IMG/VR virus record: IMGVR_UViG_3300017971_000622
Reading direction: 5' to 3' (one strand)
Length of the DNA: 31,161 bases
Source of the DNA: a virus
The notes under the pieces are model-generated. The model was not told the DNA's origin, did no database searches, and saw only the letters and a program-made list of their open reading frames with translations. The position numbers were made by a program, and so were the translations under genes. Below are positions 1 to 7,910 of the stretch, in pieces (the stretch's first letter is position 1; each line of letters begins with the position of its first letter).

Positions 1-403
1 ATCCATAATCCCCCTCATACCGCCTGTCGAGTTGAGGATAAGGCACCACGTGAGCAGGTTTTATCTGCTTCACTCCATAAGCTACACGACCCATCCCTCC
101 AATATACTCGACGCTTCTCCTGAGCTTGGCCTCTGCCTCCTTGGTGAAGTTCCGAAGATGATAACTGGCAAATTCGAGAGCTATCTTCTTGGCATTGTGC
201 CACTCAGTGTTTGGATTGCCCACCTTCACCGTAACGGGATAAGGAACGCTACCGGCCAATTTCACGGCATATCCATTACTGGTGTGCTCGACCGAGAGAA
301 TCTGCCACTCCCACGGGTCTAACCTGTCTTCAAACCTGATATTGACTGCCGTCAACTGCTTTGCCAGCCTCACCAGCTCCTGTGCTATCTTTTGTTCGTT
401 CAT
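1..403 (-). CDS. Leader-peptide family protein, 3' end truncated by window edge (N-term MNEQKIAQELVRLAKQLTAV)
   Basis: ATG at 403 (complement). Continuous ORF runs to the window edge. N-terminal leader motif is shared with the downstream array. ATGA overlap with the stop of the 400..681 gene. Confidence 0.6.
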   Translation of the reverse strand, partial: MNEQKIAQELVRLAKQLTAVNIRFEDRLDPWEWQILSVEHTSNGYAVKLAGSVPYPVTVKVGNPNTEWHNAKKIALEFASYHLRNFTKEAEAKLRRSVEYIGGMGRVAYGVKQIKPAHVVPYPQLDRRYEGDYG

Positions 404-681
404 AAAGCTTCCTTCAGTGCCTCCTGCACGGCCCTCTCCGCCGCAGGGCCTGCCGCATCGCTTCCACGACCCTTTTCATTCATTATGCGCCATATTTCCT
501 TCTTCAGCTCCCCGGCCTTGCGCTCTACTTCGCTAATCTCACGACGGGCAAGCTCAAGACCCCGGCCACCGCCCTTCGCCATTTTCTCGGCGGCATCCAG
601 ATTGTCACGAATCCCCCTGCCCGCTGTCAGCGCTCTGGCCAGTCTTACCAACTCTCTGGCTATGACGTGCTCAGTCTTCAT
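400..681 (-). CDS. Leader-peptide family small protein (MKTEHVIARELVRLARALTAG...)
   Basis: ORF track. Variant of the conserved leader peptide. Translationally coupled to neighbours. Confidence 0.6.
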   Translation of the reverse strand: MKTEHVIARELVRLARALTAGRGIRDNLDAAEKMAKGGGRGLELARREISEVERKAGELKKEIWRIMNEKGRGSDAAGPAAERAVQEALKEAL

Positions 682-967
682 CGCTTGTCTCCTCCACCAA
701 ATGGATTATCAATCCCTCAGTGGTTTCAAGAACGTCCACGAGTTGCTTCTCGATATGCTTGAACATATTTTTGGCCACGGTGCCCATATTCTCAATTTCT
801 GTGCGCTTGACATCCTTGAAAGACCGGAACAAATCGCCCAGCTCTCGTTGCATCTTACGAAGAGCATTTAGTGCCTTTATCACATCTCGGTCATCAAGAA
901 TCCGGTCTGCCGCTGTTAGTTCTCTGGCCATGGCTACCAGCTCTTGGGCTATCTTTTCGTTATTCAT
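671..967 (-). CDS. Leader-peptide family small protein (MNNEKIAQELVAMARELTAAD...)
   Basis: ORF 671..970. Second ATG at 967 gives the canonical MNNEKIA start and an ATGA-type overlap with the upstream stop. Confidence 0.65.
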   Translation of the reverse strand: MNNEKIAQELVAMARELTAADRILDDRDVIKALNALRKMQRELGDLFRSFKDVKRTEIENMGTVAKNMFKHIEKQLVDVLETTEGLIIHLVEETSDED

Positions 968-1182
968 CATCCGACCTTCCTTGCGGTTTCTTTTATCGCA
1001 ACACCGCCCCGAGATTCTATTCCCAAATCAGTGGCCAACTCAATGGCATCCCTCTTGCTCTTGGCCCGAACCCTCATGCTCATGGTAAGAATCCTCCTGA
1101 CCTCCCACTCCGGCAGGTCTTCCTCCAGATTCTCCCTGTGCATCCGCTCAAGAAGATTGTTGGCTATCTTCTGTATATCCAT
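967..1182 (-). CDS. Small protein, weak leader variant (MDIQKIANNLLERM...)
   Basis: ORF 967..1236. Internal ATG at 1182 is preceded by GGAGGG. Only partial match to the leader motif. Confidence 0.4.
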   Translation of the reverse strand: MDIQKIANNLLERMHRENLEEDLPEWEVRRILTMSMRVRAKSKRDAIELATDLGIESRGGVAIKETARKVG

Positions 1183-1238
1183 GCCAACCCAAAGCCCTCC
1201 GGGGCGGCAAGCCGCCCCATCGGACTCAATTTTCATCC

Positions 1239-1652
1239 TTACGGAATTGTTACATTCGAACCGCCCACGCCACCGAACAGTGCGCCCGTGCCATAGCGAC
1301 GGTTGCCGGTTGCGCCAACCAAGACGCTCGTGTGTACCACTTCCGAATCGGTAATCGGAATGTCATCGAGGTCACGACCCACGACGCCCAGCATCTCGAC
1401 AAGGACGTGCGTCGGCTCGGCGTCAATGTCGCCAAGGTAGTTCGATGCCGCCGCCGTAACCGAGAGGCGGTTGAACTTGGCCGCAAGCCACGGACGGGTA
1501 CCCGTCTGCGTCTGCGGGTTCCAGATGTACTTCAAGTACGTCTTGACCGCCGCCAATTCGGCTCCTGTCGGCTCCGTGATACGACTGTTCCGGGCGATGT
1601 TCCATACCCATCTCGCCCACTGCCACCAACTATATGTACTACTTCCGGCCAT
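1239..1652 (-). CDS. Hypothetical W-rich protein (MAGSSTYSWWQWARWVWN...), no leader
   Basis: ORF 1239..1739. Internal ATG at 1652 has a strong AAAGGAGG RBS 7 nt upstream. Confidence 0.5.
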   Translation of the reverse strand: MAGSSTYSWWQWARWVWNIARNSRITEPTGAELAAVKTYLKYIWNPQTQTGTRPWLAAKFNRLSVTAAASNYLGDIDAEPTHVLVEMLGVVGRDLDDIPITDSEVVHTSVLVGATGNRRYGTGALFGGVGGSNVTIP

Positions 1653-1756
1653 TTTAGGCCTCCTTTCGTTTTTTGCCCTTAGAGGTCTCGCAAACGATAA
1701 CCTCAACATGGTCGCCACCATGGCTCCATGCCGACCCATTTGGGCATAGGGTCAAT

Positions 1757-2050
1757 CTATCTCAACTGTGAAAGTATCATATCCGGGCGTCGCAGTTTAT
1801 TCACTGCGGCACGAAGTATCTTCTCGACATCCTTCAAAACCCTGACCTCTGAGGACATCACGCCCTCTTCCTTCATCTGTTGCTCGGCATACCACGCAAT
1901 ATTCTCCACGAGGGTCGAGAAATAGTAGTTCGATTTCCTGTACCACTCCCCAACGTCGGAAAGAGTGACAGAAGCATCCATGGCTCTTTCAGCAGTCAGC
2001 TCTCTTGCCACGGCCACAAGCTCTTTGGCTACTCTCTGCCTGTTCATCAT
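1757..2050 (-). CDS. Leader-peptide family small protein (MMNRQRVAKELVAVARELTAE...)
   Basis: ORF track. Leader motif. ATGATGA overlap with the upstream stop. Confidence 0.65.
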   Translation of the reverse strand: MMNRQRVAKELVAVARELTAERAMDASVTLSDVGEWYRKSNYYFSTLVENIAWYAEQQMKEEGVMSSEVRVLKDVEKILRAAVNKLRRPDMILSQLR

Positions 2051-6226: not shown

Positions 6227-6236
6227 CGAATGCTCC

Positions 6237-6596
6237 TTAAATGGCTATGCCGTACTGCTTCGCCCATTCTTTCAATGACTCCATGCCGTAGAGGACAGTG
6301 TCGTAGTTCTTCCTCTTGGCCGCATCCCAGAACACGGGGATGATGCTGGCGTCCAAGTCTTCTATCATCTCGGCAAAATCATCCTCATCACGCACGATTT
6401 TACTCCGGGCCTTTCTGAAGTCCTCCAGTCTCATATCACGAGACTGTTCCATCAAAAACTCAGCAATCGCTTCGGCAGTCTCAACCGTGTCGTACCTGTC
6501 ACTCTTTAAGAATCTTTCGATTTCCGGCCAACGATAGACGGCCCTTCCTGCAACAAACTCTCTTACGAGCTTCTCTGCTATTTTCTGATGATTCAT
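6237..6596 (-). CDS. Leader-variant small protein (MNHQKIAEKLVREFVAGR...)
   Basis: ORF track. Divergent leader. Confidence 0.55.
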   Translation of the reverse strand: MNHQKIAEKLVREFVAGRAVYRWPEIERFLKSDRYDTVETAEAIAEFLMEQSRDMRLEDFRKARSKIVRDEDDFAEMIEDLDASIIPVFWDAAKRKNYDTVLYGMESLKEWAKQYGIAI

Positions 6597-6877
6597 CGAA
6601 TGCCCCTCACGCTTCTGAGATGGTCGGAGATGGCATTATCCAAATCTGAAAATGCCTCTGCCATAGCATCACGTTGTTTTTTCATCTTCGGACTGTCAAG
6701 CTCCGGGTTCTCCCCTCGGGTCTCGTACATGATGCCCAGTGTATTAAGATAGTAGCGCCCGAACGTGGCGAACTCCCTCCTCATCTCCTGCAACGCATCC
6801 AAGTAAGGAAACCGGGCAACTCTACTCCGGGCTACGAACTCTCTGGTCAGCCTCTCGGCTATGCGTTCTTCGTCCAT
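6593..6877 (-). CDS. Leader-variant small protein (MDEERIAERLTREFVARS...)
   Basis: ORF 6593..6898. ATG at 6877 is preceded by GAGGAG. Confidence 0.55.
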   Translation of the reverse strand: MDEERIAERLTREFVARSRVARFPYLDALQEMRREFATFGRYYLNTLGIMYETRGENPELDSPKMKKQRDAMAEAFSDLDNAISDHLRSVRGIR

Positions 6878-6887
6878 GTCAGTCTCC

Positions 6888-7283
6888 TCAGAAAGCACTC
6901 AATACTGATTCCACCTTCCTTACGGTGTCATCAACAATCTTGGATATTTTGGCTATCTTGGCGTCCACCTTCCTTGCGTACTGCGGGTCATCGAAATGAT
7001 ATTTGTCCTCGGAAATCCAGATGTCTTCCTGCACGTCTGTCGCCAACTGCTCCAGCTTCTGAGCCGCCTTGTTGCGCTCACCCCACGGGTCTCCCTTCGC
7101 ACTTCGCACTCTCGATGACTTTTTCTTCTTCAGGAAGTCGGGCTTAGGCTCGTTCTCCTTGCCGTCATTGTCCTTGTCCTTGTCTTTCCACTGTTTCTTG
7201 AAAGCTTCGGGGACTTCGCCTTTCTTCGAGACCAGCTCTCTGGCCAGTCTTACCAGCTCTTGTGCCACTTCTTGTTCGTTCAT
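6888..7283 (-). CDS. Leader-peptide family protein, K/D-rich (MNEQEVAQELVRLARELVSK...)
   Basis: ORF track. Confidence 0.65.
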   Translation of the reverse strand: MNEQEVAQELVRLARELVSKKGEVPEAFKKQWKDKDKDNDGKENEPKPDFLKKKKSSRVRSAKGDPWGERNKAAQKLEQLATDVQEDIWISEDKYHFDDPQYARKVDAKIAKISKIVDDTVRKVESVLSAF

Positions 7284-7293
7284 GTCAGTCTCC

Positions 7294-7668
7294 TTAAAGC
7301 CCGTAGCTTCTCGCCAATCTTTCGGCTTCTCTCGGGTCTGCGTCTATGATTGGAATAATCCTACTGATTTCCTTCAAAAAGCGAGTTCGACTCAGGTGGT
7401 CGAGTGTACGAAAGTCCAGTCTGAGATATGCCTCGGCATGTCGTGGGTCAATGTCCGTTCGGCCAAGCTTCCTGAGAGTGGAAGTTACGATATCATCATA
7501 CATGGAACGAAGAGCCGTCAGCTCTCTGGCCATTCTCACCAGTTCTCGGGCTACTCTTTCACTGGAATCAACTTTCTTGGTGCGCCGGGTCTTGACAGGC
7601 TTGCTCTCAACCGGCTCGATGATTTCAACATCCCCCACCTCGGCAAGAAAAACTCTGTGATTGCGCAT
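7294..7668 (-). CDS. Protein with basic N-terminal extension and an internal leader motif (..SERVARELVRMARELTAL..)
   Basis: ORF track. Motif sits at about residue 36. Confidence 0.55.
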   Translation of the reverse strand: MRNHRVFLAEVGDVEIIEPVESKPVKTRRTKKVDSSERVARELVRMARELTALRSMYDDIVTSTLRKLGRTDIDPRHAEAYLRLDFRTLDHLSRTRFLKEISRIIPIIDADPREAERLARSYGL

Positions 7669-7910
7669 TACGCCTCCGCAACTATTTTTGTAAGAATGTC
7701 AACAAGCCCTTCGACCGTCGTGCTTGGCCGGATAACGCCAACGCCGAACTGCTTCAGGCGCTTGCGCTTCTTCTGCGTGAGCTTGCTCATCTGGGTTTTG
7801 AGACTTCTCACCTTGGAGGCGAACTGCTCATCAATCTTCTCTTCTTCCTCGGCGGCCATAATCTCGTTGGCCAGCACCAGAAGCTGTCTTGCAACCTTGG
7901 CTCTGTTCAT
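7668..7910 (-). CDS. Leader-variant small basic protein (MNRAKVARQLLVLANEIMAA...)
   Basis: ORF track. Confidence 0.55.
   Translation of the reverse strand: MNRAKVARQLLVLANEIMAAEEEEKIDEQFASKVRSLKTQMSKLTQKKRKRLKQFGVGVIRPSTTVEGLVDILTKIVAEA

Follow-up and report, generated by a model that had tools for sequence, protein, structure and literature searches.

The array and its genes

The DNA analyzed here, IMG/VR virus record IMGVR_UViG_3300017971_000622, is a fragment of a huge phage, and IMG/VR lists related pieces among its viral contigs. The window, by which we mean the full 31,161-bp stretch (apparently the whole contig), begins with a tandem array of small genes: 21 consecutive minus-strand open reading frames (ORFs) of 80-203 amino acids (aa) fill positions 1-7910, and most of their products carry the same short peptide, which we refer to as the tag. 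Its consensus, M-[ND]-x-[QE]-[KR]-[IV]-A-x-E-L-V-x-x-A-[RK]-E-L-T-A, is present in 17 of the 21 genes, at the N terminus in 15 and internally in two; half of the motif is found in two further genes and none of it in the last two. An earlier note on this DNA described nearly every minus-strand ORF of the region as starting with the motif. The array and its 15 N-terminal tags bear this out, but the two internal, two half, and two missing motifs do not. The array also does not stop at the window start. A second contig of 14 kb (L011), which overlaps the left end of the window and brings the part of the phage that was read to about 45 kb, carries it onward with 10 further tagged genes; together with the 17 in the window, this phage has at least 27.

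A strict regular expression for the motif core matched 17 times, always on the minus strand and inside 1-7910; it had no match in 7911-31161 and none on the plus strand. We built a 22-residue hidden Markov model (HMM) of the tag from these 17 matches and applied it with a threshold of 10 bits. It detected 19 matches in the 31-kb window: the original 17, at 31-49 bits, and two more at 10-12 bits, namely the half-motif gene 6237..6596 and a partial second tag within 4389..4994. The same model found no match of at least 10 bits in six frames of about 461 kb of LR756500, an unrelated huge phage; thus, the enrichment of the tag in the window is far above chance. The two half-motif genes, 6237..6596 and 6593..6877, keep MN-x-QKIAEKLVREFVA only. 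The genes of the array are as follows, with tag HMM scores in bits.

1..403, minus strand: tagged gene, truncated at the window edge; 166 aa long in L011; tag MNEQKIAQELVRLAKQLTAV, 344..403; 43 bits
400..681, minus strand: tagged gene, 93 aa; tag MKTEHVIARELVRLARALTAG; 38 bits
671..970, minus strand: tagged gene, 99 aa; tag MNNEKIAQELVAMARELTAA; 46 bits
967..1236, minus strand: small gene with no HMM-detectable tag; faint MDIQKIANNLLERM from an internal Met only
1239..1652 (mechanical ORF to 1739), minus strand: untagged conserved protein, 137 aa; 131 clusters, 50-90% identity
1757..2050, minus strand: tagged gene, 97 aa; tag MNRQRVAKELVAVARELTAE; 40 bits
2047..2382 (ORF to 2406), minus strand: tagged gene, 111 aa from the tag Met; tag MNEQKIAQELVAVARELTAV; 49 bits
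2410..2928, minus strand: tagged gene, 172 aa; tag, linker, helical hairpin, degenerate second tag (about aa 99-108), beta/alpha domain; 49 bits
3003..3323, minus strand: tagged gene, 106 aa, acidic C-terminal domain; tag MNNQHVAKELVAIARELTAA; 46 bits
3323..3814, minus strand: tagged gene, 163 aa; tag MNNQRVARELVAVAKELSAA; 44 bits
3816..4094 (ORF to 4115), minus strand: tagged gene, 92 aa from the tag Met; tag MDNEKIAQELVAVAKELTGV; 43 bits
4109..4369, minus strand: tagged gene, 86 aa; tag MDNQRVAEELLKVARELTSG; 41 bits
4389..4994, minus strand: tagged gene, 201 aa; full N-terminal tag and partial second tag AKVARELTSGE (about aa 134-144)
4994..5362 (ORF to 5374), minus strand: tagged gene, 122 aa from the tag Met; tag MDNQRVARELVAMARELTAG; 49 bits
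5362..5937, minus strand: gene with internal tag, 191 aa; tag SSQKTARELVAVAKELVAG at aa 99-118, nucleotides about 5584..5643; 36 bits
5951..6226, minus strand: tagged gene, 91 aa; tag MNRQKIAQELVRMAEELTAR; 43 bits
6237..6596, minus strand: half-tag gene, 119 aa; variant MNHQKIAEKLVREFVAG; 11.7 bits
6593..6877 (ORF to 6898), minus strand: half-tag gene, 94 aa from the tag Met; variant MDEERIAERLTREFVAR; 7.6 bits
6888..7283, minus strand: tagged gene, 131 aa; tag followed by a conserved Lys/Asp-rich segment, KKGEVPEAFKKQWKDKDKD..ENEPKPDFLKKK; 40 bits
7294..7668, minus strand: gene with internal tag, 124 aa; tag SSERVARELVRMARELTAL at aa 35-55; 40 bits
7668..7910, minus strand: first gene of the array, adjoining the TROVE gene, 80 aa; degenerate tag MNRAKVARQLLVLANEIMAA, more canonical in the ortholog P0021; 31 bits

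The array genes are packed in the manner of an operon, and GGAG-type Shine-Dalgarno sites are present at most of their starts. Translational coupling through overlapping stop and start codons, initially proposed for the whole array, is borne out in part by the 9 of 20 junctions that overlap (by -1, -4, or -11 nucleotides); the remaining junctions are gaps, mostly of 1-27 nucleotides, with two of 74 and 104 nucleotides. An initiation context, (A/G)GGAGACTGAC-ATG-(A/G)AC, recurs upstream of the starts at 7283, 6877, 4369, 3814, and 2928. This shared context suggests that a cassette of ribosome-binding site and tag is reused as new genes enter the array.

A conserved helix on unrelated proteins

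The tag has the features of a short amphipathic helix. A helix N-cap at positions 2-4, [ND]-x-[QE], precedes two heptads of the form E-L-x-A-[IVLM]-A-[RKQ] at residues 6-19, and T-A-[AG] caps the end of the helix, after which comes a variable linker rich in Ala, Thr, Lys, Gly, Asp, and Glu. The core stripe consists of Ile/Val6, Leu10, Ile/Val/Met13, and Leu17, with the invariant Ala7 and Ala14 beside it; 3.4% of shuffled sequences have a larger hydrophobic moment than the consensus. An AlphaFold model of the 172-aa protein encoded at 2410..2928 places a helix at residues 2-19, a coil at 20-30, and then a helical hairpin and a confidently predicted beta/alpha domain. Among 150 family members, conservation reaches at least 90% at each of M1, A7, E9, L10, A14, and L17. 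Glu9 and Glu16 both follow A-x, with A7-x-E9 found in no fewer than 90% of these members and A14-x-E16 also common, although A-x-E is a low-information pattern that is also expected from an Ala-lined coiled coil. Two other roles for a peptide of this kind were considered and rejected. Its two conserved Glu residues and moderate hydrophobicity argue against a membrane anchor, and the cargo parts are folded domains of 60-180 aa, unlike what would follow the leader of a ribosomally synthesized and post-translationally modified peptide.

Selection on the tag acts at the level of the peptide and not of the DNA. Invariant residues are encoded by different synonymous codons in different genes, four each for Ala7 (GCA/GCC/GCT/GCG), Leu10 (CTT/CTG/TTG/CTC), and Ala14, and three for Leu17, and pairwise identity across tags is 0.70 at codon positions 1 and 2 and 0.50 at position 3. 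The earlier note had reached the same view, and its further claim that the C-terminal parts are unrelated also holds: when tags were masked, an all-against-all BLASTP comparison of 30 array proteins returned a single pair at E < 1e-3. This pair consists of the C-terminal half of 4389..4994, which follows the partial second tag, and the tagged L011 gene 2033..2296 (E = 1.6e-4); thus, 4389..4994 is itself a fusion of two tagged genes. The gene at 2410..2928 is likely another such fusion, judging from its sequence, since its residues at about 99-108 align with the tag of P0027 and the two proteins have the beta/alpha domain in common. Internal tags would then be explained by the fusion of neighboring, overlapping tagged genes.

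What the tag is attached to is diverse. The C-terminal parts include beta-rich and alpha/beta domains as well as known enzyme folds. A fold search with the 172-aa protein (2410..2928) gave no significant match in the PDB, and BLAST found no match in phages or plasmids to the acidic domain of 3003..3323. One segment recurs behind the tag: the Lys/Asp-rich stretch of 6888..7283, KKGEVPEAFKKQWKDKDKD-DGKENEPKPDFLKKK, is also found in P0001, P0016, and L012 (at about 1664), with 100% identity over 35 aa in L012, and in P0001 it is flanked by an N-terminal and a C-terminal tag.

Diverged forms of the helix are present outside the array as well. In L011, a topoisomerase IB (8493..10007) starts with the tag-like helix MREARELLILARELLG, a DUF2958 protein (3248..3889) has a half-tag variant at its N terminus, and a P-loop kinase of AAA_33/Zeta-toxin type (12871..13959) ends with a tag-like helix, ..AKAASEILRVAEILMS, at its very C terminus. 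In all three proteins these helices lie outside the regions matched by the Pfam models (Topoisom_I, which covers residues 205-418 of the topoisomerase; DUF2958; AAA_33/Zeta-toxin). Internal tag-like helices occur in conserved larger proteins, for example that of L011 7509..8489. Given tags on such varied domains at N-terminal, internal, and C-terminal positions, the helix appears to act as a position-independent module.

Distribution, turnover, and surroundings of the array

A profile search of 1.84 billion representative proteins, along the lines that the earlier note had proposed, identified 369 clusters at E ≤ 0.001; similar arrays lie on huge-phage contigs of up to 190 kb. In the best 168 family members, whose median length is 107 aa, the tag lies within 12 residues of the N terminus in 154, and 29 have more than one tag. 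The motif does not correspond to a described family, as first thought: no Pfam, PHROG, NCBIfam, PADLOC, or PDB family matched it. The tagged proteins of the window had no meaningful match in Pfam, PHROGs, NCBIfam, or PADLOC, and Pfam (E ≤ 0.001) gave seven weak hits among 150 family members, each to one or two proteins and none above the curated cut-off. A DUF5661 match on a related contig was discarded, as it covers a different, C-terminal segment and not the tag. Full-text searches of the literature for the tag peptide strings returned no paper, and BLAST searches of 50,697 phage records with the array DNA, array protein, and tag returned no match. Among 185,579 bacterial and archaeal species, each represented by a single genome, a scan yielded 20 isolated, unrelated matches and no array; these are single chance matches, such as the transposase-like IWCELVAMASELTAWMQ. 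From these searches, the tag seems to be confined to this group of mobile, phage-like genomes.

Pattern scans detected further arrays: 15 tags in 6 kb in L012, 15 tags in L010, part of a viral contig of 140 kb, 22 tags over 20 kb in a contig of 190 kb (L006/L046/L072), and several short array fragments besides. In 11 of 170 metagenomic members (P0039, P0040, P0064, P0072, P0076, P0086, P0112, P0122, P0153, P0159, and P0170), the tag is directly followed by a second motif, [IV]-[ED]-FPT-x-x-A-x-DKY[LM]K-[ED]-HPDAD[KR]S-x-H-x-V, and the unit of the two is repeated up to three times within one protein. Neither the window nor any of the loci fetched contains this second motif.

The array keeps its place while its contents change. 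The untagged 137-aa gene at 1239..1652 is found within the arrays of four or more lineages (68-75% identity), and the clade of its product comprises 131 clusters (50-90% identity) on contigs of up to 298 kb. It is always inside or at the edge of tag arrays and is far more conserved than its neighbors there; the genes flanking the arrays are conserved too (43-79% identity). Although arrays recur at the same syntenic place beside this gene in at least four lineages, their cargo is mostly different: in the parts of related arrays that were read, homologs were detectable for only about 7 of about 24 distinct tagged proteins. At the sequence level, then, the tag and the position of the array are kept and the cargo turns over. 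Distant members of the clade, with 58-67% identity on the 137-aa protein, have only five weak tag-like helices and one, respectively, and the expansion of the tag thus appears to be lineage-specific. The 137-aa protein is predicted to be a five-helix bundle with a Gly-rich GGVGGS tail (predicted local distance difference test score, pLDDT, of 86). A fold search with it found no PDB match, and no natural fusion of the tag to it was found in a Rosetta-stone test. It is a candidate for the partner of the tag or for a structural core gene.

Beyond the array, the window encodes a TROVE/Ro60-vWA protein, tRNA-Met, a tmRNA, an MVP (vault shell) homolog, three HExxH paralogs, a PAPS-reductase-like protein, NAMPT, and a Nudix-domain protein.

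8366..10174, minus strand: TROVE/Ro60 and vWA gene, directly upstream of the array
11287..11363, minus strand: tRNA-Met
11717..14496, minus strand: MVP homolog, 3.8 kb from the array
15201..15578, minus strand: full-length tmRNA, with the tmRNA tag peptide AKVINFPGVMAPAMAA
17090..22917, minus strand: HExxH paralogs (18287..20197, 20565..21545, and 21868..22917; 24-28% identity) and their neighbors
23882..28920, minus strand: NAD-salvage block with NAMPT (26538..28007) and a Nudix-domain protein (27937..28920), beside the PAPS-reductase-like gene (25422..26435)

The MVP homolog, which had been placed about 4 kb from the array, is indeed there. It is split into 13375..14496 (373 aa) and 11717..13408 (563 aa), which overlap by 34 nucleotides in different frames; its closest homolog, P0292, is a single 929-aa protein with 71% identity, and the split is thus a frameshift, which may reflect an assembly error, decay, or programmed frameshifting. 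Its best phage matches are the "uncultured phage" genomes LR756500 (462 kb) and LR756501 (735 kb). Among the matches listed at 40-47% identity, those named by organism are proteins from metagenome-assembled genomes of Myxococcota or Deltaproteobacteria. Phage MVPs have already been reported (bioRxiv 10.1101/2023.11.10.566534). A search for related loci among viral contigs using MVP found none. The adjacency of the TROVE gene to the array is kept in L032 (2737..4512) and L073 (14317..16098); no Y RNA was found near the TROVE gene of the window, even with relaxed Rfam thresholds.

The tmRNA and tRNA-Met genes sit between the MVP/TROVE genes and the HExxH genes. Each HExxH paralog has the sequence MN-x-x-[KR]-IA-x-[KR]-[IV]-YED-x-I-x-RRV-x-GL-x-x-PP-x-M, and three neighbors, 17090..18253, 20158..20607 (GNAT-like), and 21542..21910, start with MN-x-x-x-[KR]-IA-[DE]-[KR]-[IV]. 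These N termini resemble the first half of the tag and score below the tag HMM threshold; none of the six proteins reaches the curated cut-off of any Pfam model. The NAD-salvage block is syntenic in L073, L104, and L105, and 23882..25012, a neighbor of the PAPS-reductase-like gene, has no Pfam match. Extension of the contig to the right added methyltransferase genes only.

Proposed docking and packaging, and the alternatives

The interpretation of the peptide as a common tag is supported, and it is explained most economically by a role in targeting or docking. Conservation of the peptide, unrelated cargo, position independence, a linker, restriction to a lineage, and many copies are together what is expected of a docking peptide with a single partner. 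Our tentative proposal, which we regard as plausible rather than probable, is that the tag is a portable docking helix on phage proteins that most likely serves packaging into the prohead; the partner is inferred. Of three conceivable destinations (the capsid, a compartment, or self-assembly), analogy with known systems would make capsid packaging the most likely. In this model, an uncultivated clade of huge phages would attach a helix of about 17 residues, built of an Asn/Asp N-cap, two heptads with an Ala-lined hydrophobic stripe, a C-cap, and a linker, mostly to the N termini of many small accessory proteins that turn over fast, and would put diverged forms of it on a few enzymes. All tagged proteins would bind one common partner through the helix, most likely the scaffold or core of the assembling prohead, and would be packaged and then injected together with the DNA. 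A prohead protease of the giant-phage type may remove the tag at the two conserved A-x-E sites (A7-x-E9 and A14-x-E16). New tagged genes would arise by reuse of the ribosome-binding site and tag cassette, with occasional fusion of adjacent ones.

The closest parallel is found in phage T4, whose internal proteins are diverse and have only the capsid-targeting sequence (CTS) in common (PMC3012670, PMC9026906). There, ten N-terminal residues bring the internal proteins, Alt, and foreign proteins into the prohead core; T4-related phages exchange internal proteins freely, and Alt has propeptides at both termini (PMC3012670, PMC9026906). The targeting peptide ends in the cleavage site L/I-x-E (PMC9026906). 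As in the T4 system (IPI/IPII/IPIII and Alt), a short conserved N-terminal peptide is attached here to unrelated, fast-diversifying small proteins encoded by clustered genes, and the signal is also found on enzymes; that of T4 is portable to foreign proteins (PMC3012670, PMC9026906). However, the two signals have no sequence similarity, the tag has 19-20 residues instead of ten and lacks L/I-x-E, and it is carried by at least 27 genes instead of a handful. It is also found internally, C-terminally, and in repeats.

A second parallel is offered by giant phages of the phiKZ/SPN3US type, which package dozens of proteins, many of them cleaved after A/S/G-x-E. Two of these, gp53 and gp54 of SPN3US, have an identical N-terminal 15-mer, MANFVKSKLARESVE, that holds a KLARE / AXE site (PMC5694885). 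The propeptides of phiKZ, 201phi2-1, and SPN3US resemble the tag in their giant-phage setting and in their large multi-gene families; the two A-x-E positions of the tag fit the S/A/G-x-E cleavage pattern, which carries little information and would also be expected of an Ala-lined coiled coil. In contrast, their families are true paralogs with homologous mature domains (e.g., PF12699), whereas the mature parts of tagged proteins are unrelated, and these parts had no Pfam or PHROG match to inner-body or ejection families. Targeting or a propeptide of the T4 or phiKZ type had been suggested at the outset; of this, the closeness of the parallel to T4 internal proteins stands, but the cleavage part is weakened, as only the low-information A-x-E fits.

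Several observations weigh against packaging into the prohead. No capsid, scaffold, portal, or prohead-protease gene was seen in the approximately 45 kb of window and L011, nor was a gp175/gp245-like protease. The tag consensus MNxQKIAxELVxxAxELTA contains no match to the T4 cleavage consensus L/I-x-E, and the A-x-E that it does contain is a weak pattern, equally that of an Ala-lined coiled coil. Tagged proteins show no charge bias, unlike the basic internal proteins of T4, and C-terminal and multiple tags are atypical of T4 targeting sequences. Finally, the AlphaFold confidence at the tag itself is low (pLDDT of 38, from a two-sequence alignment).

Alternatively, the tag could be a self-associating coiled coil through which tagged proteins form homo- or hetero-oligomers, also with proteins such as that of L011 7509..8489, in mixed bundles or barrels that would make up a combinatorial hub of many proteins, without any targeting to a shell. 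The best PDB matches to the motif profile are designed six-helix barrels, the CC-Hex peptides (IAQELKAIAKELKA vs IAQELVAVARELTA; PDB 3R3K, 3R46, 4KVT, and 6Q5H), which have the same E-L-x-A-I-A-x heptad and share 10 of 15 residues (IAQELKAIAKELKA-type) with the tag consensus. Invariant Ala7 and Ala14 fit very close packing of helices, at least two tags are present in 29 of 168 members, and internal tag-like helices are found in conserved larger proteins. However, these matches have E-values of about 0.1-0.3, which are not significant, and the similarity is convergent; the tag has the Ala-lined (Type-2) heptad but only about two of them, whereas the designs have four and autonomous assembly takes three to four contiguous ones. 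Self-association alone would also leave the near-constant position of the tag at the extreme N terminus unexplained, and we consider it unlikely. A handle for one host protein (e.g., a protease, chaperone, or polymerase), with the C-terminal parts delivering differing activities or substrates, seems to us less probable again. Small, fast-evolving phage gene arrays typically serve host takeover or counter-defense, and the conservation of E9, equal to that of the core Leu positions, hints at a specific polar contact; however, the tag is unlike any known host-binding short motif, and there is no obvious rationale for tethering phage enzymes such as topoisomerase IB, which carry diverged tags, to a host protein. 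We also give little credence to the idea that there is no shared partner and that tagged proteins are diverged paralogs of one small helical family in which the first helix alone is still recognizable. Many members are short and predicted to be helical (median 107 aa), but beta-rich, alpha/beta, and enzyme folds are found among the C-terminal parts, no residual similarity is left after masking of the tag, a linker separates tag and domain in the AlphaFold model, and tags are found internally and C-terminally as well as on topoisomerase IB and a kinase. That the conservation serves the nucleic acid, as a translation-initiation region or the boundary of a recombination cassette, is hardly tenable. 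The recurrent GGAGACTGAC-ATG-AAC context upstream of several genes, the fusions, and the cassette-like turnover would agree with it, but the third positions of codons differ freely where the encoded residues stay invariant, which largely refutes it, and the peptide is equally conserved at internal and C-terminal sites where no initiation takes place.

The neighborhood of the array brings in a different kind of destination. A linear sorting signal that routes dozens of proteins into an intracellular compartment built by the phage, be it an MVP/TROVE particle or another shell, is an improbable reading of the tag; in its more specific form, a cargo-loading peptide like the encapsulation peptides of bacterial microcompartments (BMCs), it is a slightly fainter prospect still. 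On the one hand, MVP and TROVE genes adjoin the array both here and in the relatives L073 and L032, and the tag agrees with the definition of an encapsulation peptide: an amphipathic helix of 15-20 aa at the N or C terminus, with a poorly conserved linker (PMC4594438), although AlphaFold predicts this helix with low confidence. BMC encapsulation peptides are likewise found at either terminus, and theirs is an independent module that can drive coalescence of the cargo (PMC4594438, PMC12339742, PMC7221423). On the other hand, they share a pattern but little sequence and are carried by pathway enzymes, whereas the tag is strongly conserved in sequence and its cargo consists mostly of proteins of unknown function; no BMC-H/BMC-P or encapsulin shell domain was detected in the window or L011 ORFs scanned. 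As for the vault, eukaryotic vaults include vPARP, with its INT domain, and TEP1, with a TROVE domain, and their likeness to this locus is that MVP and TROVE genes lie beside the array. Vault cargo binds through the folded INT domain of about 160 aa and not through a short helix. Moreover, no tag occurs in 461 kb of LR756500, a complete phage that encodes MVP, the MVP-bearing L074, a contig of 507 kb, shows none within 10 kb, the 20 kb that were read of the tag-rich 190-kb contig contain neither MVP nor TROVE, and MVP is split in two ORFs here, unlike the single 929-aa homolog. The suggestion that the tag loads cargo into an MVP shell is thus weakened: co-occurrence of tag and MVP fails in LR756500 and, within 10 kb, in L074, and adjacency is confined to the close relatives L073 and L032.

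Our proposal of a docking helix for prohead packaging concerns a sequence family that is undescribed, although both the T4 targeting sequence and the encapsulation peptides of microcompartments exemplify the principle. As a natural instance of the E-L-x-A-I-A-x heptad known from designed helical barrels, the tag is of interest to protein designers. Should it be a sorting signal for a compartment, no organelle-style targeting peptide would have been described for a bacteriophage before it, and its cargo would already be catalogued; more generally, a compartment or self-assembly signal would represent a new organizing principle for phage infection. If it is a packaging signal, the principle of T4 capsid targeting would extend to a distant lineage and to a far larger scale, and it would provide a natural peptide for loading proteins into large capsids. 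Most genes of huge phages have no assigned function, and these phages are known almost only from metagenomes. As a mark that would assign several dozen proteins per genome to one destination, the tag offers a direct handle on these genes: it predicts a defined set of co-localized and possibly co-injected proteins, and it points to a receptor.

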